Shown piece after piece: positions 10,754 to 63,771 of a DNA stretch of 64,000 bases (position 1 is its first letter; each line of letters opens with the position of its first letter). The position numbers were made by a program, and so were the translations under genes. Source of the stretch: an uncultured Candidatus Saccharibacteria bacterium (lineage in GTDB: Bacteria; Patescibacteriota; Doudnabacteria; UBA920); contig CAZEKH010000004.1 of NCBI GenBank assembly GCA_964512925.1, positions 72,392-136,391 on the forward strand. The letters run 5' to 3'. A model generated the notes under the pieces. The model was not told the DNA's origin. It saw only the letters and a program-made list of their open reading frames with translations, and searched no databases.

Positions 10754-12241
10754 ATGTCAGATTCTTTTGAATTTAAAACTTTAACAGAACTGCGGAATTT
10801 GCTGGATTCCAAGTCCATATCTTCTTTGGAATTGACCAAATATTTTTTGTCGCGCATAAAAAATTTGGATAAAGATTTAAATTCTTTTGTGACTGTTTCA
10901 GAAGAAGAGGCTTTGAAAAATGCCAAGGATGCGGACGAGTTTATAAATTCGCCTGGTGAAAATCCTTTTTTATGCGGTATTCCTTATGCTTCAAAAGATT
11001 TATTTTTGACCAAAGGCGTGCGCACCACTGCTTCTTCAAAAATATTGGATAACTATATACCGCCTTATGATGGAACTGTGACAAAAAAACTAAAAGATCA
11101 AAAGTCAGTTTTGCTGGGTAAAACCAATTTAGACGAATTTGCCCACGGCTCTTCTACTGAAACTTCAGCTTATGGGGTGTCAAAAAATCCTTGGGATAAA
11201 AATCGCATACCGGGAGGTTCTTCGGGTGGTTCTACTTCAGCTGTGGGAGGCGGACTTGCTCCTTGGGCAACAGCTACGGAAACAGGCGGCAGTATCCGTC
11301 AGCCGGCTTCTTTGTGCGGGCTTTCTGGCTGGAAGCCTACCTACGGGCGTGTTTCAAGATTTGGAGTCATAGCTATGGGTAGTTCTTTGGACTGTCCTGG
11401 CGCGGTTGCGCATACAGTTGAGGATTTGGCTCATTTGGCTGAAATAATGTCAGGACTGGACCCGAAGGATTCCACTACCGGACCGGTTGAGGTACCGCGC
11501 TTTTCCAAATCTTTAAACCAAAACATTAAAGGAAAAAAATTGGGTTTGCCCAAACAATATTTTGTAGATGGTATGGAGGAGGGTGTCAAGATAAGGGTTT
11601 TGGAAGCGGTTGATGAGCTTAAAAAACTTGGCGCTGAAATTGTTGAAGTTGACCTGCCGAACACCAGATACGGGTCTTTAGTTTATGCTATTATTTGTCC
11701 TTCGGAAGTTTCTTCAAATCTTGCGCGGTTTGATGGCATCCGCTATGGCCATAGCTCCAAGGAAGCGAAAAATCTTTTGGAAACCTATGAGAAATCCCGC
11801 GGAGAAGGTTTGGGTTTGGAGGCAAAGCGGAGGGTTTTAACAGGGACATATGTATTATCTGCCGGCTACTATGATGCGTATTATAAAAAAGCTCAAAAGG
11901 TCAGGGGGCTTATACTGCACGAATTTCAGGAAATTTTTAAGTCAGTTGACGCCCTGGTCTGCCCTTCTTCGCCAAATGTTGCGCCGAAAATCGGCACTGC
12001 CAAACAAAACCCGCTTTTTGGCTATATTGCCGACCAGCTGAACATCCCGTCCTCGCTTGCCGGCCTTCCTGCTTTGTCTGTTCCTTGCGGATTTTCTTCC
12101 CCGTCTGACGATGCTTCAGTACAGCTGCCTGTCGGCCTCCAGATCATCGGTCCTCAATGGGGAGAGCAGACAGTATTTGATATAGGTTATGCTTTTCAAA
12201 AAGTTACTGATTGGCATACCAAACATTCAACTCTTGCATAA
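10754..12241 (+). CDS. gatA: Glu/Asp-tRNA amidotransferase subunit A (amidase signature)
   Basis: Amidase signature GGSSGGS...TETGGSIRQPA. Confidence 0.9.
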   Translation: MSDSFEFKTLTELRNLLDSKSISSLELTKYFLSRIKNLDKDLNSFVTVSEEEALKNAKDADEFINSPGENPFLCGIPYASKDLFLTKGVRTTASSKILDNYIPPYDGTVTKKLKDQKSVLLGKTNLDEFAHGSSTETSAYGVSKNPWDKNRIPGGSSGGSTSAVGGGLAPWATATETGGSIRQPASLCGLSGWKPTYGRVSRFGVIAMGSSLDCPGAVAHTVEDLAHLAEIMSGLDPKDSTTGPVEVPRFSKSLNQNIKGKKLGLPKQYFVDGMEEGVKIRVLEAVDELKKLGAEIVEVDLPNTRYGSLVYAIICPSEVSSNLARFDGIRYGHSSKEAKNLLETYEKSRGEGLGLEAKRRVLTGTYVLSAGYYDAYYKKAQKVRGLILHEFQEIFKSVDALVCPSSPNVAPKIGTAKQNPLFGYIADQLNIPSSLAGLPALSVPCGFSSPSDDASVQLPVGLQIIGPQWGEQTVFDIGYAFQKVTDWHTKHSTLA

Positions 12242-12279
12242 CTAGAGAATTTTTAATTTGCAATTTTAATGAATTTTCA

Positions 12280-13830
12280 ATGAAAGAATTTACAGCTTCA
12301 ACCGAATACAAACCCGTGATTGGGTTTGAGATACATATACAGCTTGCTACCAAATCTAAGATGTTTGGCGTGGCGCACAACAACCCGGACCAGACTGAGC
12401 CGAATATGGATATAGACGAAGTTAACACGGCGCAGCCCGGGACTTTGCCTGTGGCAAACAAAGAAGCTATAAGGATGACTACAATGGTGGGGCTTGCTTT
12501 AAACTGTCAGATAGATGAGTTTAGCAAGTTTGACAGAAAACACTATTTTTACCCCGACCTGCCGAAAGGTTATCAGATTTCTCAGTATGATCAACCCATT
12601 GCGAAAAACGGGTATTTGGACATAGAGGTGAATGGAAAAATAAAGAGGATTAACATCACCAGGGGGCACCTTGAAGAAGATGCCGGGAAAAACATTCACC
12701 CAGAAGGATTGCCTTACTCTTTGGTTGATTACAACAGGGCTGGGTCAGCGCTTTTGGAAATTGTGACTGAACCGGAGATAGAAAGCGGACAGGAAGCTTA
12801 TGCGTTTTTAAGTGAGTTAAAAAATATCGTACGCTACTTGGGCGTGTCTTCCGCAGATATGGAAAAAGGAATTTTAAGGTGTGAGCCGAGCATTTCTGTG
12901 CGAAAACCTGGGGAAACCACTCTGCCAAAATATAAAGTGGAAGTAAAAAATATCAACTCTTTTCGCTTTGCCCAGGCTGCGATTGACTACGAAATCGCGC
13001 GGCAGACCGAGATTTTAAAAGACGGCGGAACGCCCAAGCAGGTTACTATGGGCTGGAACGAAAAGCTGGGAGTGACGGTTGAGCAGAGAAGCAAAGAAGA
13101 AGCAAACGACTACCGATATTTTCCGGAGCCGGATTTGCCGGTTTTACAATTTACCCAAGAGTATTTAGATGAGCTTAAAAGAAAAATGCCGGAACTGCCT
13201 GCTCAGAAAAGGCAAAGATTTTTAGAGGAATACGGTCTGCCTAAAGCGGATGTGGAAAATTTGGTTAATTGGAAAGAATTGGCGAATTATTTTGAGGAAG
13301 TGGTGAGTGAAATAGACGAATGGATCATTGTGGAAGGTCAATCGTTCGACCTCTCCCGCCCTGCGGGCACCCTCCCCACGCCTGGGGAGGGAAAAAGTGT
13401 TATTGCTTCGCAACTCTATAAAAGCGCTGTCAATTGGTGTTTGCAGGATTTTTCCGCGCTTTTAAACCAAAATCTGTGGAATCCTTCGGATTCTTCTGTA
13501 ACCCCTGAAAATTTTGCTGAGCTTTTAGTAATGATCCAGAAAGGAAAAATTTCAACTTCTGCAGCCAAACAGGTGTTTAAAGTGATGTTTGAAAAAGGCG
13601 GAGAGCCGGACAATATAGTTTCCGACCTTGGCCTGGAGCAGGTTTCAGATACAGGAGCTATTGAATCCGCTTTGGATAAAGTCATTGCCGAAAACCAAAA
13701 AGCTGTTACGGACTACAGGGCAGGCCAACAAAAGTCTTTTGGTTTTTTGGTCGGCCAGGCAATGAAAGAGCTGAAAGGTAAAGGCAACCCGCAGATTATA
13801 AACGAAATTTTAAAGAAAAAACTTTCTTAG
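12280..13830 (+). CDS. gatB: Glu/Asp-tRNA amidotransferase subunit B
   Basis: ATG at 12280 (MKEFTAS...) overlaps the gatA end. GatB core plus YqeY-like tail. It carries a GC-rich in-frame insert (see 13350-13391). Confidence 0.9.
   Translation: MKEFTASTEYKPVIGFEIHIQLATKSKMFGVAHNNPDQTEPNMDIDEVNTAQPGTLPVANKEAIRMTTMVGLALNCQIDEFSKFDRKHYFYPDLPKGYQISQYDQPIAKNGYLDIEVNGKIKRINITRGHLEEDAGKNIHPEGLPYSLVDYNRAGSALLEIVTEPEIESGQEAYAFLSELKNIVRYLGVSSADMEKGILRCEPSISVRKPGETTLPKYKVEVKNINSFRFAQAAIDYEIARQTEILKDGGTPKQVTMGWNEKLGVTVEQRSKEEANDYRYFPEPDLPVLQFTQEYLDELKRKMPELPAQKRQRFLEEYGLPKADVENLVNWKELANYFEEVVSEIDEWIIVEGQSFDLSRPAGTLPTPGEGKSVIASQLYKSAVNWCLQDFSALLNQNLWNPSDSSVTPENFAELLVMIQKGKISTSAAKQVFKVMFEKGGEPDNIVSDLGLEQVSDTGAIESALDKVIAENQKAVTDYRAGQQKSFGFLVGQAMKELKGKGNPQIINEILKKKLS
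13350..13391. repeat. GC-rich palindromic element inserted in-frame in gatB (hairpins CCCGC-CCT-GCGGG and CCCTCCCC-ACGCCT-GGGGAGGG)
   Basis: It translates to SRPAGTLPTPGEG. The second hairpin is the C-for-T variant of the CCCTCTCC-N6-GGAGAGGG core seen elsewhere in the window. Confidence 0.6.
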
Positions 13831-41213: not shown

Positions 41214-41311
41214 CCCCGTTAGAAATTTAAACTTCATAAATAATTGGATTTAAAATTAAAGTTTGCTAATGTAAATTCTACACTAACAAAGTCAGGAGAT
41301 TTCTAACGGGG
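41214..41311 (+). promoter_or_regulatory. Long-range 13-bp inverted repeat CCCCGTTAGAAAT ... ATTTCTAACGGGG enclosing the SD and GTG start of rplI
   Basis: Perfect arms about 70 nt apart; the right arm ends at the start codon. Confidence 0.45.
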
Positions 41312-41763
41312 TGAAAGTTATATTTTTAAAAGATCTGGCAGGACAAGGAAAGAAGGGGGAACTGAAAGAAGTTGCTGAAGGTTTTGGCAACAATTTTTTA
41401 GTTGCCAAAGGGTTTGCGGCTGTTGCCACTCCGCAGATAATCGCAAAAATTCAAAAAGAAAAAAAGGATGCGGAAGAAAAACTAAATCGGGATTTTCAAA
41501 AAGCAGTGTCGCAAAAAGCAGATTTGGAAAAGCGGGTTTTTATTTTAAAGGTAAAAGTAGGCGATAAAGGGCAGGTTTTTGGGGGAATGCACGAAAAGGA
41601 TATAGCCAAGGCTGTATCGGACAAGATGGGTTTTGAAATTGACAGGCATATGGTGGCAATTCCCCAACCGTTTAAAACCCTGGGCGAGCATAAGGCTAAG
41701 GTTAAACTAAACGACAAAGTTCAAGCTATTATAAACATTAAACTGGAAGCTGAAACCGCTTAG
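41311..41763 (+). CDS. rplI: 50S ribosomal protein L9
   Basis: GTG start; MKVIFLKDLAGQGKKGELKEV. Confidence 0.85.
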   Translation: MKVIFLKDLAGQGKKGELKEVAEGFGNNFLVAKGFAAVATPQIIAKIQKEKKDAEEKLNRDFQKAVSQKADLEKRVFILKVKVGDKGQVFGGMHEKDIAKAVSDKMGFEIDRHMVAIPQPFKTLGEHKAKVKLNDKVQAIINIKLEAETA

Positions 41764-41766
41764 CAT

Positions 41767-42189
41767 ATGACTGACAATATTCCTTTGGAAGAAAATATTG
41801 ATTTGGACAAAAACACAAGACTGAACAGCCTTTTGAAGTTTTTGGTTTTAACTTTTTTAGCCTCTGGTATGGTTTTGGTTGTGCTTCGGCAGATTGAGGT
41901 TTACTACCGCGATCAAATTTACATAGCCACGCAAGTAACATTGCCGGTGCATAAACAGGCCAGTAGATCAGTTGGTCAGAATATCAGTAAGTCAGATAAT
42001 CAGTTAATCAGTGGAAATGATTTATTTAAAGTATGTCCTACTGATTGGATAGTAAATAAAATGCCGGTGATAGATAAAAATCAGCCTGAGGAGTATTATA
42101 TTTTAGACGGCAAGAGGTGGGAGATTTCGGAGTTTGATGTGGGGTGGGTAAGAGAAAATTGTGATGTAAAACCTCAGGCAGTTTACTAA
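41767..42189 (+). CDS. Hypothetical protein (140 aa, one TM segment)
   Basis: Intact ORF. Confidence 0.4.
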   Translation: MTDNIPLEENIDLDKNTRLNSLLKFLVLTFLASGMVLVVLRQIEVYYRDQIYIATQVTLPVHKQASRSVGQNISKSDNQLISGNDLFKVCPTDWIVNKMPVIDKNQPEEYYILDGKRWEISEFDVGWVRENCDVKPQAVY

Positions 42190-42212
42190 ATAATAAAGTT
42201 TATGTTGCTTTA

Positions 42213-42330
42213 CCCCCTCTCCTATATAGGAGAGGGGTGGGGTGAGGTTTGAGCGATGGTAATAAGACATAAGTTTAATCAATTTTTTAACATTGTTGCC
42301 TCACCCTGCCCTCTCCGAGTTTGGAGAGGG
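42213..42330. mobile_element. MITE-like composite: two copies of the GC-rich palindromic element in inverted orientation flanking a 51-bp AT-rich core
   Basis: Left copy CCCCTCTCC-TATATA-GGAGAGGGG-TGGGGTGAGG. Right copy CCTCACCCTG-CCCTCTCC-GAGTT-TGGAGAGGG. Confidence 0.55.
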
Positions 42331-42384
42331 AATTGATAAAAAAATATTTTTTTATAACACATTAACTGTTAACAACTTTATAAA

Positions 42385-44064
42385 ATGGCGAAAAATAACA
42401 ATTCCAGCAAAACAAAAAAAAATCCTATAAAAACCAAATTTATCTTTGTTTCCGGTGGGGTTATATCCGGCATTGGTAAGGGGATTACTTCGGCTTCTGT
42501 GGGAGCGATTTTGAAGTCCAAAGGTTTTTCCGTTAGCGCGGTTAAAGTGGATATGTATTTAAACCAGGACGCGGGAACCATAAGGCCGCAGGAGCACGGG
42601 GAAGTTTTTGTGACTGAAGATGGGATGGAAACAGACCAGGACTTGGGACACTATGAGAGGTTTATCGGGCAAAATATCACCAAGGCAAACTACATCACAA
42701 CCGGACAGATATATGCGGAAGTTTTGAGAAAAGAGCGCGCGTTTGAGTACGGCGGAGAGGATGTGGAAGCTATCCCTCACGTGACGGATGAAATCATCCG
42801 CAGGTGGAGCGTGGCCGGCAAGGGCAATGATTTTTGTTTGGTGGAGCTTGGCGGAACTGTTGGAGAATACCAAAACGGCATCTTTTTTGAAGCCACGCGT
42901 ATAATGAAACTGCGAGATCCTGGGTCAGTATTACATATTCATGTGGCTTATTTGCCCATCCCTTCGTATTTAGGCGAGATGAAGTCTAAACCGGTTCAGC
43001 AGTCAGTCAGAGTTTTAAATAGTATGGGCATTGAGCCGGATATAATAGTCGGACGTTCTTCCGTACCCATAGACGACCGCCGCAAAGAACGCGTGGCTTT
43101 GTTTTGCAATGTGGCAAAAAATTATGTCCTTTCCAATCCCGACGTCTCCAGCATTTACGAAGTGCCTGTTATATTAGAACAACAAAAAGCCGGAGAATTG
43201 ATCTTGGAAAAATTTGGCATTAAACCCAGAAAACAAGATTTGAAAGAATGGAAAGCTTTGGTTTCCCGCATTAAAAATATCAAAAAAGAAGTTAATATTG
43301 CTGTGGTAGGAAAGTACTTTGGCGTAGGGAAATTCCAGTTATCGGATTCATATGTTTCAGTGATTGAATCAATAAAACACGCAGCCTGGCAAAACAAGGT
43401 TAAGGCTAAACTGACCTGGATAGACTCCGTAAAAGTAGAAAAACAGGGCGCTAAGAGCGTTTTAAAAGGTTTTGCGGGCATTGTAGTTCCTGGGGGGTTT
43501 GGCAGCCGTGGCACAGAAGGGATGATTGAAGCAGTTAAATACGCCAGAGAAAACAATATCCCATACCTGGGACTTTGCTATGGAATGCAGATGGCAACCA
43601 TAGAGTTTGCTAGAAATGTTGCAAATTTAAAAAATGCCAACACCACGGAAGTAAATAAAAATACTCCATACCCGGTCATCCATATAATGCCTGAGCAGGA
43701 AAAAATGCTTTTAAATCGCGAGTACGGGGCAACTATGCGTCTGGGTGGTTGGGATTGTCTTATTAAGCGGGGGACTAAGGCTGAGAAAGCTTATTTGGAT
43801 GGCGGCTGGATCAAGAAGTTAGGCAGACCAAGGATTTCCGAACGTCACCGTCATCGTTATGAGTTTAACAACGAATTTAGAGAGCAGCTGGAAAAAGCTG
43901 GGTTAGTCATTGCCGGCACCACGCCGGACGGCAAACTTGTGGAAATAGTTGAACTTAAAGACCATCCCTTTTTTGTCGCCAGCCAGTTCCACCCGGAATT
44001 TTTATCCCGGCCTCTTTCACCGCATCCTTTGTTCGCGGGATTTATGAAAGTGGTAGTAAAATAA
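42385..44064 (+). CDS. pyrG: CTP synthase
   Basis: Synthetase domain plus glutamine amidotransferase domain (GLCYGMQ). Confidence 0.95.
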   Translation: MAKNNNSSKTKKNPIKTKFIFVSGGVISGIGKGITSASVGAILKSKGFSVSAVKVDMYLNQDAGTIRPQEHGEVFVTEDGMETDQDLGHYERFIGQNITKANYITTGQIYAEVLRKERAFEYGGEDVEAIPHVTDEIIRRWSVAGKGNDFCLVELGGTVGEYQNGIFFEATRIMKLRDPGSVLHIHVAYLPIPSYLGEMKSKPVQQSVRVLNSMGIEPDIIVGRSSVPIDDRRKERVALFCNVAKNYVLSNPDVSSIYEVPVILEQQKAGELILEKFGIKPRKQDLKEWKALVSRIKNIKKEVNIAVVGKYFGVGKFQLSDSYVSVIESIKHAAWQNKVKAKLTWIDSVKVEKQGAKSVLKGFAGIVVPGGFGSRGTEGMIEAVKYARENNIPYLGLCYGMQMATIEFARNVANLKNANTTEVNKNTPYPVIHIMPEQEKMLLNREYGATMRLGGWDCLIKRGTKAEKAYLDGGWIKKLGRPRISERHRHRYEFNNEFREQLEKAGLVIAGTTPDGKLVEIVELKDHPFFVASQFHPEFLSRPLSPHPLFAGFMKVVVK

Positions 44065-53202: not shown

Positions 53203-54150
53203 TCAAACCTGGGAAGATTTAATTTTGTATTTAATCAGTTCGGATACAAGGCCCCAAGTTGCGTGGAAAATCCTTTTATATCTTTTGGGCTGGGTTAGAA
53301 GTCTCCATAACCATTCCAGACCCATTTGAGCTAGTATTTTTGGAGGCTTTGGGTATATGCCGGCTAAATAATCAAAAGTTCCGCCAACGCCCATAACCAA
53401 ATTGATGCTTGAAAGTTTTGGCAAATTTTCCAAAATCCACTTCTCCTGGCGGATAGGTCCAAACGCAACAAATAAAATATCAGGGTTTGCGATGTTTATA
53501 TCATCAATAATTGACACATCCTCGGGATTTTTGTTTGAATATTGAACCCTGATTTTTTGATCTGCTGATCTACTGATCAACTGTTCCGCTGCCAATTTCG
53601 GAGTTTCCCCAAATCCTCCAAGTAAATAAATTGACCAGTTATTTTTTTCCGCAAGCTCTGCAATGTCAGAAACTAGTTCTCGTCCCGGGATTCTTTCTAT
53701 TTGCGTACCAAGCCCCCTCCCCTGCCCTCCCCCGCCTGTGGCGGGAGATGGAGAAAAAAAAGGAAAGGCAAATTTGATTAGCACAGCTAACGCTTGAAAG
53801 TAGGCTTTAAAAATTATTTTCCAGTGGTTAACATTTTCTAGCTTGCCTTTGAACTTATTTTTTTCCCCTCTCCCCGAATCAGATGGGGGGGGAGAGTAGG
53901 GTGGGGGTGTGGGTGGTATTTCCAAATATGTTTTTGCCCACAAAATCCCAATACCGTCAGCTAGGGCAATGTCAGCTTTGTTTAGCATTTCTAAAATTTG
54001 TTTGTCGCGTAAAGCAGCATACAAAAATTCTGAGTACAAAGTCGTTACCCAGGTTTTTTGTTTGTTTCTAATATTTTTTTCTAATTCTTTCAGTAATTCA
54101 GGTTTAGAAAAGTTGTTAATCTTAAGTCCCGCAACATCAATTTTTTGCAT
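53203..54150 (-). CDS. WecB/TagA/CpsF family glycosyltransferase carrying an in-frame insertion of about 70 aa
   Basis: Conserved ADGIGILWA and VMGVGGTFDY blocks. The insert is PTPPPYSPPPSDSGRG...GGGGQGRGLG. Confidence 0.7.
   Translation of the reverse strand: MQKIDVAGLKINNFSKPELLKELEKNIRNKQKTWVTTLYSEFLYAALRDKQILEMLNKADIALADGIGILWAKTYLEIPPTPPPYSPPPSDSGRGEKNKFKGKLENVNHWKIIFKAYFQALAVLIKFAFPFFSPSPATGGGGQGRGLGTQIERIPGRELVSDIAELAEKNNWSIYLLGGFGETPKLAAEQLISRSADQKIRVQYSNKNPEDVSIIDDINIANPDILFVAFGPIRQEKWILENLPKLSSINLVMGVGGTFDYLAGIYPKPPKILAQMGLEWLWRLLTQPKRYKRIFHATWGLVSELIKYKIKSSQV
53709..53917. mobile_element. MITE-like insertion of about 210 bp inside the tagA-like gene: C/G-rich inverted termini around an AT-rich core, read through in frame
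   Basis: The right end contains CTCTCCCC-N12-GGGGAGAG (family core). The left end contains CCCGCC-TGT-GGCGGG. Confidence 0.55.
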
Positions 54151-56471: not shown

Positions 56472-56548
56472 ATTCCCTTTTAAGTGATAAAAAAACGTGG
56501 TGGATAAATAAAGTTTTAAATATATAGAAACATAACCTCTCTCTAACT

Positions 56549-56567
56549 CTCTCCAAGTATTGGAGAG
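56549..56567 (+). promoter_or_regulatory. Conserved hairpin CTCTCCAAG-TA-TTGGAGAG immediately upstream of fmt (same element as at rplK)
   Basis: 18 of 19 nt identical to 30480-30498. Confidence 0.5.
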
Positions 56568-56577
56568 AGAAACTATA

Positions 56578-57522
56578 ATGAAATCTATGAGAATTGTTTT
56601 TTTTGGCACATCAAATGTGGCTTTACCGGTTTTGGAAAATCTTTCCCGCCAGCACGAGATTGTTGCTGTGGTAACCAGGCCGGACGCAAAAGTCGGCAGG
56701 AGCCAGGAACTTTCCGAAAGCCCTGTTTCGGTTTTGGCCAATGAGATGAAAATCAAAGTTCTAAAACCTGAGATGGTAAAAAATAACAATATTTTCAGGC
56801 TGGAACTTCAGGATTTAAACGCTGATATTTTTGTCGTGGTTTCTTATGGGCATATTTTGCCTTTGGAAATAATCAATATACCGAGGCTAAAAACTTTGAA
56901 TGTGCATTTTTCTTTGCTTCCCAAATACCGCGGCGCCTCCCCTATTCAGGCCGCGCTTTTAAACGGAGAGACCGAAACAGGCACCAGCATATTTATTTTA
57001 GACGAAAAGATGGACAGAGGACCCATCCTCAGGCAGGAAAAAATCGCCATTGATCCAGACGACAACTTTTTGTCTTTGTCGGAAAAGCTGGCTGCCCTTT
57101 CGGGAAAAATAATTGTTGACACTATTTATCACTACGACAACGGCGATATTAAACCAATTTTTCAGGACGAAAATTCGGCCACCTATTGTAAGACCTTATC
57201 CAAAGCCGATGGCAAGATAGACTGGTCAAAAACGGCTTTGGAAATCTATAACCAGTTTAGGGCATTTTTCCCTTGGCCAGGAGTTTGGACAGAGTGGAAT
57301 AAAAAGAAGGTTAAAGTGCTTGAATGCATTGCTACAAATCCAGATACTATTAAAGCCACAAATGCCTACGAATTTGGCCAGGTGCTGGAAAATGGAGCGG
57401 TGCTTTGCGGGCAAAATACATTTTTACAAATCAATTCGCTTCAGCTAGAGGGAAAAAAAGAAACAAAAATCGCTGACTTTTTAAACGGCTACTCGGATTT
57501 CGTAGGAAGCAAACTAAACTAA
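56578..57522 (+). CDS. fmt: Methionyl-tRNA formyltransferase
   Basis: MRIVFFGTS...HFSLLPKYRGASPIQ. Confidence 0.9.
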   Translation: MKSMRIVFFGTSNVALPVLENLSRQHEIVAVVTRPDAKVGRSQELSESPVSVLANEMKIKVLKPEMVKNNNIFRLELQDLNADIFVVVSYGHILPLEIINIPRLKTLNVHFSLLPKYRGASPIQAALLNGETETGTSIFILDEKMDRGPILRQEKIAIDPDDNFLSLSEKLAALSGKIIVDTIYHYDNGDIKPIFQDENSATYCKTLSKADGKIDWSKTALEIYNQFRAFFPWPGVWTEWNKKKVKVLECIATNPDTIKATNAYEFGQVLENGAVLCGQNTFLQINSLQLEGKKETKIADFLNGYSDFVGSKLN

Positions 57523-62065: not shown

Positions 62066-63229
62066 TTAAAAATATTTTTTATCTTTTAACTTCTCAGGCA
62101 GAAAGCTGGCGGATTGGTCATCGGAAGAACCATATCCCAGATCTTTCATCAGTTGGGTCGGGGCATTCCTTATATGAAGGGGTACGGGAAGATTGCTGAA
62201 ATTTTTGACGTCAGCCTGGGCTGCGCGAAGAGCGTCATAAGCAGAGCGGTCTTTTTTGCAGTTTGCCAGGTAAGCGGCGCCGTGGCTGAGGTTTATGGCG
62301 CATTCGGGGTAGCCGATTTTTTCACAGGCCGCAAAAACCGCAGTAGCAACCACCAAAGCAGTAGGCTGTGCCAGTCCGATGTCTTCTGAAGCAAATATTA
62401 CCATTCTTCTGGCGATAAATAAAGGGTCTTCGCCGGATTCCACCATTCTCGTCAGATAGTAGATTGCGGCATCTGTTTGTCCCGCGCGCATAGATTTGAT
62501 GAAAGCAGAAATAGTGTTGTAATGTTCTTCTCCGGCTTTGTCGTATCGCAAAGTTTTTGACTGTAAGGTTTGTTTGAGATTTTCAAGAGTGACAGACCCG
62601 TACAGGCTGATACAATTTTCCAACATTGACAAAACTTGCCTGGCATCCCCTCCTGACATTGACACTAGCCACTGTTTTTCACCCTCTCCGATATCGGAGA
62701 GGGTTGGGGTGAGGTTACGGATAGCATTATTTATTATTTCTCCAATTTCTTCCTCATTTAACTCATTTAGCACAAAAACCCTGCAGCGGGACAAAAGCGC
62801 GGGGATGACTTCAAAGCTCGGGTTTTCCGTGGTTGCGCCGATCGAAGTCAGCTCGCCAGACTCTACATAAGGCAAAAGGAAATCCTGCTGAGCTTTGTTA
62901 AAACGGTGGATTTCGTCCAGAAAAAGAATCTTGGGTGTATTGGACAGATAAGACTCATTGGACTTATAAGATTTATTTTCAATTATTTTCCTGATATCTT
63001 CTTTCCCAGCGCTGACTGCGGAGAGTTCAAAAAATTCAGCATTCAGTGCTTTTGCATATATCCTCGCCAGGGTGGTTTTGCCCACGCCCGGCGGTCCCCA
63101 CAGCAAAAAACTAAACAAATGTTTTTGTTCTATGGCTTTTCTTATGGGTCCGTCCTCCCCTACCAAATGCTTTTGACCAATATAATCTTCAAGGGTTTGG
63201 GGTCTGAGTTGTTGCGCTAGTGGCTGCAT
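62066..63229 (-). CDS. rarA: Replication-associated recombination protein RarA/MgsA (AAA+)
   Basis: Walker A GPPGVGKTT, Walker B LFLDEIH and a GGDAR arginine finger. Contains the in-frame palindromic element. Confidence 0.85.
   Translation of the reverse strand: MQPLAQQLRPQTLEDYIGQKHLVGEDGPIRKAIEQKHLFSFLLWGPPGVGKTTLARIYAKALNAEFFELSAVSAGKEDIRKIIENKSYKSNESYLSNTPKILFLDEIHRFNKAQQDFLLPYVESGELTSIGATTENPSFEVIPALLSRCRVFVLNELNEEEIGEIINNAIRNLTPTLSDIGEGEKQWLVSMSGGDARQVLSMLENCISLYGSVTLENLKQTLQSKTLRYDKAGEEHYNTISAFIKSMRAGQTDAAIYYLTRMVESGEDPLFIARRMVIFASEDIGLAQPTALVVATAVFAACEKIGYPECAINLSHGAAYLANCKKDRSAYDALRAAQADVKNFSNLPVPLHIRNAPTQLMKDLGYGSSDDQSASFLPEKLKDKKYF
62681..62714. repeat. Palindromic element ACCCTCTCC-GATATC-GGAGAGGGT-TGGGGTGAGG in-frame inside rarA
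   Basis: Encodes TPTLSDIGEG just upstream of the GGDAR motif; same family as 42213-42247. Confidence 0.65.
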
Positions 63230-63747: not shown

Positions 63748-63771
63748 TACCCTCTCCTCGCCAGGAGAGGG
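63748..63771. repeat. Intergenic copy of the palindromic element ACCCTCTCC-TCGCCA-GGAGAGGGT
   Basis: Perfect 9-bp stem with a 6-nt loop. Confidence 0.65.

Follow-up and report, generated by a model that had tools for sequence, protein, structure and literature searches.

A tails-inward pair of BoxC/PIT/TM-type repeats before pyrG in a Patescibacteria genome, and the association of such repeats with DUF559 genes

What is a strongly symmetrical, non-coding stretch of 118 bp doing just in front of a CTP synthase gene, and does it belong to that gene or did it arrive there as mobile DNA? The stretch lies at positions 42213-42330 of the window, by which we mean the whole 64,000 nucleotides analysed here (GenBank assembly GCA_964512925.1, contig CAZEKH010000004.1, positions 72,392 to 136,391), from an uncultured member of the Patescibacteria, or candidate phyla radiation (CPR). 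A sequence-only reading had described it as a composite resembling a miniature inverted-repeat transposable element (MITE), with inverted terminal copies of a palindromic element around an AT-rich core, and had added that it could influence pyrG expression. We consider it reasonably probable that the feature is a tails-inward inverted pair of repeats of the BoxC/PIT/TM_ECO type, lineage-specific, probably selfish or neutral DNA, and derived from a cassette that encodes a DUF559 protein.

Architecture and identity of the composite

The inverted terminal copies are borne out: units of about 32 nt flank a 51-nt AT-rich core, and the unit also occurs elsewhere in the window. The left triplex-motif (TM/BoxC-type) unit (42213..42247, plus strand) consists of a C-arm (CCCCTCTCC, 42214-42222), a TATATA loop (42223-42228), a G-arm (GGAGAGGGG, 42229-42237), a single T (42238) and a third segment (GGGGTGAGG, 42239-42247), with the C at 42213 as the counterpart of a C that is conserved in the family at position -2. 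The right unit (42299..42330) is inverted and reads CCCTCTCC-AAACTC-GGAGAGGG-CA-GGGTGAGG on the minus strand, or CCTCACCC-TG-CCCTCTCC-GAGTTT-GGAGAGGG on the plus strand; it is the left unit reverse-complemented, save for a different loop and an indel of 1 nt in the tail. The pair is made up of two inverted copies of a unit of about 33 nt, tails inward, around a spacer without strand (42248..42298, 51 nt, 25% G+C) that is unique and whose ends, GCGATGG and CATTGTTGC, can pair weakly. Upstream lies an open reading frame (ORF) of 140 amino acids (aa) without a Pfam family (41767..42189, plus strand; hereafter hyp), which follows rplI (41311-41763). Downstream lies pyrG itself (42385..44064, plus strand; Pfam CTP_synth_N, E 7e-99, plus GATase), and its ATG at 42385 puts the end of the composite 55 bp before the gene, the distance that had been given.

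The composite is no product of chance. The hairpin CCCTCTCC-N3-9-GGAGAGGG has four occurrences in the window, where 100 shuffles predict 0.00, and the RNA fold that the sequence-only reading had called for, run on the 195-nt spacer between hyp and pyrG, gives -68.5 kcal/mol with z = -7.5. The predicted fold has three stems, namely the left hairpin, a central stem formed by both tails (GGGGTGAGG/CCTCACCC) and lengthened by the weakly pairing spacer ends, and the right hairpin; the DNA fold is likewise, and the inverted doublet is thus predicted to form one long hairpin with two terminal hairpins. An independent Logan assembly (SRR14271332, locus L129) is identical across 271 nt covering the composite, which excludes an assembly artefact. 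No polymorphism was seen at the composite, for which this identical sequence is the only same-strain contig.

Each unit has three parts, CCCTCTCC-loop-GGAGAGGG-3 nt-GGGTGAGG: a pyrimidine arm, its complementary purine arm and, after a second loop of 1-3 nt whose register is ambiguous, a third segment that mirrors the purine arm, with one A changed to T in both pyrG arms. The hairpins are perfect (9-10 bp on the left, 8 bp on the right), and the tail GGGTGAGG mirrors the G-rich hairpin arm with 8-10 allowed purine-motif triplets. The left unit combines 10 Watson-Crick pairs with 10 of 10 allowed triplets and the right unit 8 pairs with 8 of 8 triplets, while a related unit in mgsA (see below) reaches 8 of 10; none of 100 shuffles scored as well.

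BoxC and PIT repeats, reportedly described by Bergler in 1992, by Bachellier in the 1990s and by Hoyne and Maher in 2000 and 2002, have been orphan elements since the early 1990s. The triplex motif TM_ECO was defined as CCCTCNCCC-N3-6-GGGNGAGGG-N3-GGGNGAGGG and equated with both (Holder et al. 2015, PMC4666352). Each pyrG arm agrees with this consensus at 8 of 9 positions (CCCTCTCC-T, not CCCTCTCCC), the strict 9-nt regular expression is unmatched, and the 8-nt-arm variant is the form seen in AT-rich genomes of many phyla. Through the triplex rule and the BoxC/PIT match, the palindrome plus tail of the sequence-only reading becomes a known three-part motif and the composite a known inverted-pair configuration; the hairpin arms of the supposed palindromic element are real, and the description needs correcting in that the tail mirrors the G-rich arm. 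Judged from their sequence, the pyrG arms are members of the BoxC/PIT/TM family, and triplex formation is predicted for them.

Much is on record about this family in Escherichia coli and its relatives. The survey that defined TM_ECO counted 3,610 copies in 262 proteobacterial genomes, among them 23 copies in MG1655, all intergenic and including five ‘tandem inverted’ sites, and found that TM_ECO loci vary more among strains than control loci (PMC4666352). In Enterobacter, the number of units ranges from fewer than 30 to more than 300 per strain. Circular dichroism and nuclear magnetic resonance (NMR) showed that the isolated strand folds into a purine-motif triplex in vitro, whereas none was seen in duplex DNA or in vivo (PMC4666352). 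Pairing on opposite strands was also described for these motifs under the names ‘HPG1/HPG2’ (Kaplan et al. 2016, PMC5100583). The one E. coli pair examined here, between hrpB and mrcB, has the layout of the pyrG composite, with hairpin and tail, a 16-nt spacer, then tail and hairpin.

The pyrG units share with BoxC/PIT/TM_ECO the scheme CCCTCTCC(C)-loop-(G)GGAGAGGG-3 nt-GGGTGAGG(G), a third segment that follows the A-to-T mirror rule, many dispersed copies and the inverted pairs on opposite strands, with short spacers and often just 5' of genes. They differ in having arms of 8 nt rather than the 9 of E. coli, and a spacer of 51 nt as against 16 nt at hrpB-mrcB. Moreover, the host is a CPR bacterium whereas the published survey concerned Proteobacteria, and sibling copies lie in-frame within genes whereas E. 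coli copies are reported to be always intergenic.

Units and DUF559 genes

The unit is widespread. The pattern CCCTCTCC-N4-8-GGAGAGGG-N-TGGGGTGAGG occurs in at least 120 IMG/VR contigs with G+C from 0.32 to 0.74 and unrelated flanks, and the variant with 8-bp arms in at least 120 contigs of a species-representative genome collection. Among the matches listed, hosts of this variant include Bacteroidota, Ignavibacteria, Nitrospirota, Melainabacteria, Nostoc, Rivularia, Gamma- and Alphaproteobacteria, Armatimonadota, Chloroflexota, Verrucomicrobia, Cloacimonadota and Acidobacteria, together with five CPR lineages (Moran-, Gracili-, Falkow-, Sacchari- and Nomurabacteria). In 229 non-redundant units (loci L005-L249), the position -2 relative to the C-arm is a C in 92% and the position -1 a pyrimidine in 93%; these two bases lie outside both hairpin and triplex, are the only conserved flank positions, and may constitute a recognition or cleavage motif, C(-2)Y(-1). 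Some phage-like IMG/VR contigs (L042, L023, L050, L053, L067/L069) carry units in one orientation between consecutive genes, among them tail tube and tail completion genes, an arrangement that resembles the intergenic punctuation known from repetitive extragenic palindromic (REP) sequences.

Pairs are also common. Among the matches listed, 147 units in 0.87 Mb of genome loci include 17 close pairs (within 400 nt), of which 8 are tails-inward, 6 tails-outward and 3 direct. Methylobacterium keeps the composite as one unit: in four loci across species of the genus (L171, L178, L210, L237), tails-inward pairs have in common a 28-nt spacer that is palindromic in its own right (TGTG.GA...TCACACA).

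A search for genes bracketed by units, in the way that REPs bracket the gene of a REP-associated tyrosine transposase (RAYT), yielded 10 small ORFs that were scanned against Pfam; two encode DUF559 (PF04480; E 3e-34 and 6e-25) and two phage tail proteins. DUF559 has a Vsr-like PD-(D/E)xK nuclease fold, and published groupings place it beside Vsr and a homing endonuclease of a group I intron (PMC3424549; PMC1189080). The reverse test took 80 metagenome loci (L253-L332) chosen only by similarity to YcjD-like DUF559, with G+C from 0.42 to 0.70; clustering gives 74 groups at 90% identity and 52 at 70%. Units by a relaxed definition lie within 200 nt of the DUF559 gene in 29 of these 80 loci, with 52 units in 56.1 kb near the gene versus 4 in 222.7 kb elsewhere (0.93 versus 0.018 per kb). 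Most loci negative for the pattern carry variants with a longer second loop, or other arms that keep the mirror rule, such as the families CCTTCCCCC/GGGGGAAGG/GGATGGGGG and CCCTCCCC/GGGGAGGG/GGGTGGGG. With a sequence-agnostic definition, a unit adjoins the DUF559 gene in 61 of the 69 loci with full flanks (on both sides in 44), with 5.9 units per kb close to the gene and 0.105 per kb at a distance. Of the proximal units, the one upstream lies on the plus strand in 44/49 loci and the one downstream on the minus strand in 52/56. The association between units and DUF559 genes is thus oriented and roughly 50-fold.

In 14 loci the cassette is complete, with a length of 399-468 bp. In the 10 cassettes that allow a position-by-position comparison, the two arms agree at 30-35 of 32-37 positions, and in four they are perfect, loop included; loops differ from cassette to cassette, and the inverted symmetry often runs a few bases past the unit. 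Because the arms are near-identical and the loops cassette-specific, the two units can be taken as terminal inverted repeats of a single element. Gaps between unit and ORF are 12-60 nt upstream and 1-36 nt downstream, so that deletion of the ORF would leave a spacer like that at pyrG (51 nt) or at hrpB-mrcB (16 nt). The pyrG pair matches the cassette termini in its tails-inward orientation and in arm length, and since tails-inward units bracket DUF559 genes alike, it looks like an empty MITE- or REPIN-like derivative (a REPIN being an inverted REP doublet). Among about 245 loci selected by unit, only 5 hold a DUF559 gene, so that units greatly outnumber the gene, as REPs outnumber RAYTs. One locus from an uncultured member of the Rickettsiales (L182, 797-3148) carries a complete DUF559 domain in-frame in a long ORF, with hairpin-coded peptides on both sides; from its sequence, this ORF looks like the helicase gene priA.

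On this basis the pyrG pair may be an internally deleted, non-autonomous derivative of a DUF559 cassette, by analogy with a MITE relative to an insertion sequence, or with a REPIN relative to a REP-flanked RAYT gene. A DUF559 nuclease supplied in trans would recognise the units as structured single-stranded DNA, and such recognition would spread or maintain them. A wider proposal, which we find possible though we would stop short of calling it probable, is that BoxC/PIT/TM repeats are the terminal inverted repeats of a very small selfish cassette, pan-bacterial and about 400-470 bp long, whose sole product is a YcjD-like DUF559 nuclease; solo units and tails-inward pairs would be its non-autonomous progeny, spread in trans via a folded single strand and able to lodge in-frame in CPR genes. 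The action of DUF559 on the units is itself inferred. No paper linking DUF559, ycjD, COG2852 or PF04480 to BoxC/PIT/TM was found in the literature that we covered, which was incomplete.

A different nuclease has to be weighed here, namely a RAYT, an IS200/IS605-like Y1 transposase, acting on what would then be a REP/REPIN-type element. REP sequences, bacterial interspersed mosaic elements and REPINs are said to go together with RAYT transposases, reportedly in work by Bertels and Rainey in 2011. The pyrG pair shares with REPs and REPINs the short structured repeats, single or as inverted doublets that fold into one long hairpin; in both, a nuclease or transposase gene present once, and bracketed by inverted copies, is far outnumbered by the repeats; and the conserved 5' dinucleotide (C at -2, Y at -1) recalls the guide and cleavage motifs of IS200/IS605. 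However, among the 10 bracketed small ORFs, a sample rather than an exhaustive survey of genomes, none is a Y1 transposase; the REP GTAG motif is missing from the unit, and nothing in REPs corresponds to its third, mirror segment. A given REP family is usually confined to one species or genus, whereas the triplex unit is nearly identical across phyla, and the reverse test gives a strong, oriented association with DUF559, a PD-(D/E)xK Vsr-like fold as opposed to the HUH fold of Y1 transposases. Mobilisation by a RAYT is therefore scarcely credible for the pyrG pair, although on the DUF559 side mobilisation is likewise inferred.

Escherichia coli offers a natural comparison for a DUF559 origin. 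At the locus examined, E. coli K-12 has one annotated DUF559 gene, ycjD, adjoining fabI (envM), and TM_ECO no. 9 lies 168 nt downstream of it (NC_000913.3 1351204-1351760, L252); of 5,426 complete E. coli genomes, 3,378 have a single copy of ycjD. In phylogroups A, B1 and C, ycjD stands in the place of eefRABCD between sapF and fabI, whereas B2 lacks ycjD and has eefRABCD there (PMC12817139). For the strains surveyed by Holder, the phylogroups are those that we presume for them. The number of TM units per strain is then 19-30 in A/B1/C, 1-2 in B2 and 6-15 in D/E/F (Holder 2015 Tables S1/S7, PMC4666352). Unit counts thus track the presence of ycjD, which is suggestive and fits the cassette model, with the correlation confounded with phylogeny and the 6-15 units of the D/E/F strains counting against that fit.

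Lineage specificity, mobility and pyrG expression

The window comes from a genome of Candidatus Doudnabacteria. The best matches of its pyrG are to Candidatus Doudnabacteria/Patescibacteria, and the nearest non-identical relatives share 83-86% protein identity. Five relatives keep the gene order ftsX-rplI-hyp-pyrG-rpmA-methylase-arfC, with hyp-pyrG spacers of 46 (L003), 67 (L002), 89 (L001), 34 (L250) and 147 nt (L251), as against 195 nt in the window, or 77 nt without the composite; the hyp ORF itself varies from 73 to 481 aa among relatives. The unit is missing from this spacer in all five, so the empty sites that the sequence-only reading had asked for do exist at the level of the spacer, all five relatives being too distant for a base-precise one. 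At strain level, a look-up of the exact PyrG protein of the window gave no match. Since the five syntenic relatives lack the unit, the pair is best read as a lineage-specific insertion and not as a pyrG leader, and comparison of the sequences places the insertion of the composite in this lineage. Two of the relatives carry other, unrelated G/C-rich hairpins in the same spacer (CTCCGCC-AGCT-GGCGGAG at 2420-2470 of L251; CGATCCGC-CTGA-GCGGAGAGTCG at 3925-3950 of L001), and the spacer seems to collect small structured insertions.

The same comparison bears on whether the composite is a host element, be it a pyrG leader or attenuator, a terminator or RNA-stabilising stem-loop serving the upstream gene, or a hairpin/G-quadruplex (G4)/triplex switch with local effects on transcription or replication. 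The very stable predicted structure (-68.5 kcal/mol, z = -7.5) and the position 55 nt before pyrG speak for such a role, as do the phage contigs in which units sit between consecutive structural genes in REP-like fashion and an orthologous mgsA unit that is conserved at the DNA level. Had it been a pyrG leader structure, the same sequence might have been found in distant relatives, and all five lack it. Moreover, there is no intrinsic terminator (hairpin plus U-tract) in 41700-42500 and no promoter-like match inside the element, and Rfam 15, pyrG leader families included, has no gathering-score match in the window, with only microRNA and small-RNA noise at E<=10 in 42100-42500. In E. coli, PIT elements are reported to lack promoter and terminator activity (Hoyne & Maher 2002, as cited in PMC4666352), and the failure to detect a triplex in vivo (PMC4666352) points the same way.

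A regulatory G4-hairpin switch has been proposed for the E. coli motif (Kaplan et al. 2016, PMC5100583), and G-quadruplex formation was considered here as the constrained structure. It is weakened by the short G-runs of the 8-nt arms, which are too short for a canonical three-tetrad G4, and by a GA-only variant of the motif elsewhere in the window (56536..56569, minus strand, intergenic), CTCTCTCC-AATACTT-GGAGAGAG-TTA-GAGAGAGG. This variant keeps the mirror rule and, being without G-runs, cannot form a G4 and fits a triplex instead, which favours triplex-type symmetry over the capacity for a G-quadruplex as what is conserved. A G-quadruplex is also disfavoured by the NMR data that Holder et al. 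obtained (PMC4666352). The GA-only variant ends 8 nt before an ATG at 56578, while the ORF listing starts at a TTG inside the motif (56560); the gene that follows resembles fmt (methionyl-tRNA formyltransferase), as judged from its translation.

Taken together, we regard a host structural or regulatory element as very unlikely. The suggestion that the feature influences pyrG expression finds no backing: a role in pyrG expression is unsupported, and the element should not be annotated as a pyrG regulator. On the preferred reading, as a derivative of a DUF559 cassette, the pair would have no dedicated regulatory role and, if transcribed, would add three very stable stems to the RNA.

Is the whole 118 bp mobile, as the comparison with MITEs implied? 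In favour of the likeness, the feature is small, non-coding and intergenic, has terminal inverted repeats of about 32 nt (42214-42247 versus 42299-42330), is missing from relatives, and has the layout of cassette termini, that is, termini common to a longer protein-coding element seen in other lineages. It differs from MITEs in that it has no target-site duplication and the composite itself is not repeated, in that each terminus of the pyrG type also exists as a free-standing repeat, and in that the ‘autonomous’ partner would be a nuclease-fold protein of about 105-117 aa rather than a known transposase. The MITE-like description thus stands for the terminal repeats and the absence from relatives, and falls short on target-site duplication and on repetition of the composite.

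Several observations weigh against descent from a mobile cassette. The target-site duplications that had been proposed as a check were looked for in vain: direct repeats flanking 229 units are no longer than in a shuffled-partner control, and none is seen by eye at the composite (left flank ...GCTTTAC, right flank AATTGAT...). No insertion was caught in the act among the 229 units. By BLAST, the 51-nt core matches nothing else, neither in the remaining 63.8 kb of the window nor in about 1.9 Mb of related loci, and the two pyrG arms differ in their loops (TATATA versus AAACTC) and by one tail indel, whereas the arms of intact cassettes are near-identical. Nearby units can also arise independently, as with two units in tagA, 115 nt apart. 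Furthermore, neither the 64-kb window nor the seven CPR loci examined yielded a DUF559 gene, and Holder et al. report that they saw no association of the motif with transposons, phages or plasmids (PMC4666352). At the 14 full DUF559 cassettes, too, no target-site duplication is evident by eye.

Only the 33-nt unit is repeated across the window and the related loci, not the core or the whole composite, and because the pyrG arms differ in loop and tail, two independent insertions have to be reckoned with. On that account, the arms would be solo 33-nt insertions that came to lie head to head in a permissive spacer, with neither a composite nor a cassette origin. It gains from the core being repeated nowhere, from the majority of solo units (about 147 units versus 17 close pairs in the genome loci, among the matches listed), from the tagA units, which are demonstrably separate insertions, and from the other hairpins in the L251 and L001 spacers, which indicate that the spacer tolerates insertions. 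Yet close pairs are far above random placement (17 within 400 nt for 147 units in 0.87 Mb, among the matches listed), tails-inward pairs recur with lineage-specific spacers (28 nt at the four Methylobacterium loci, 16 nt at the one E. coli pair), and the orientation of the pyrG pair is that of cassette termini. We therefore judge a chance meeting of two solo insertions to be unlikely, while giving it real weight beside the cassette derivation.

Among other families of selfish repeats, the Rickettsia palindromic elements, reportedly described by Ogata et al. in 2000, and the mobile G+C clusters of yeast mitochondria offer a likeness as small palindromic repeats of AT-rich, reduced genomes. The Rickettsia elements also insert in-frame at tolerant loops, as do the mgsA, tagA and gatB units described below and units in other CPR genomes. 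They differ in that the sequences are unrelated, in their length of 100-150 bp, and in that the pyrG copy is intergenic.

Sibling copies in the window

A sequence-agnostic finder, which requires a pyrimidine arm of 8 nt, the complementary arm and a third segment in mirror order, returned 6 motifs in the window versus 0 in each of 20 shuffles; the five relatives, with 39.7 kb of syntenic DNA, gave none. The 64 kb hold 3 canonical and 3 variant units, and three or four lie in-frame in gatB, tagA and mgsA. In low-G+C genomes, CPR genomes especially, the unit is often found inside long ORFs of the genome loci. In such cases the C-rich strand is the sense strand in 12 of 13 clear instances (L130-L249) and in 3 of 4 in the window; avoidance of stop codons alone predicts a weaker bias than is seen.

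The canonical unit in mgsA/rarA (62066-63229, minus strand) lies at 62682..62714 on the plus strand, encodes NLTPTLSDIGEG in a variable loop and has its C-rich strand as the sense strand. The nearest homologue (L126, 72% protein identity) carries a unit at the orthologous site (L126 1926-1961), with 34/36 nt identical inside the unit as against 791/1,125 (70%) outside. At identical residues, codons are identical in 10/11 cases inside the unit versus 126/275 outside, with a chance of about 0.003 by a hand binomial estimate. Read from the two sequences, this conservation suggests either that the DNA itself is under constraint or that copies have been homogenised. A clean insertion was considered for this unit and not upheld, with a net gain of only 7 aa over modal homologues and a loop that varies in 28/120. 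Across 120 MgsA homologues (Doudnabacteria-like), unrelated insertions of 6-56 aa occur at query residues ~88 (27 homologues) and ~169-183 (28), often as repeat-coded peptides such as GEGLGEG, PLSKGELEGV, SPSGRGQGEG and ...PLPRGEGLGEG...; it would seem that small palindromic insertions in CPR proteins favour, or are tolerated in, these two MgsA surface loops.

The tagA/wecG homologue (53203-54150, minus strand) holds a degenerate TM-type unit, returned by the sequence-agnostic finder (53868..53908, plus strand), in a 24-aa in-frame insertion and a second degenerate, G/C-rich unit, recognised by hand (53705..53750, minus strand), in a 13-aa in-frame insertion (ATGGGGQGRGLGT). Both insertions are missing from all 11 aligned CPR homologues. 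A single composite insertion was considered for the two and rejected, since conserved protein sequence lies between them and marks two separate insertions. A further degenerate TM-type unit lies in-frame in gatB (12211-13830, plus strand) at 13350..13391 on the minus strand, within a 35-aa insertion relative to the GatB structure PDB 3al0_B. Finally, a hairpin-only copy without strand or third segment, CCCTCTCC-TCGCCA-GGAGAGGG (63750..63771), is intergenic, 5' of a DoxX-family gene, and may be a decayed unit.

What does the pyrG locus mean for this repeat family? Taken alone, the feature is one more instance of a described repeat, and it is the DUF559 association that deserves attention. It provides a concrete candidate for the maker or maintainer of these repeats, a matter left open by the biophysical studies of 2000-2016, and the candidate is testable in E. 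coli K-12, with its 23 units and single ycjD gene. Across phyla, the CPR/Patescibacteria included, the BoxC/PIT motif known from E. coli recurs with nearly identical sequence, where the published survey concerned Proteobacteria. In small, gene-dense genomes, in-frame units are common in essential genes, which affects the annotation and alignment of CPR proteins. Pairs such as that before pyrG, through the layout that they share with the repeats bracketing DUF559 genes, suggest how a long-unexplained repeat may spread.

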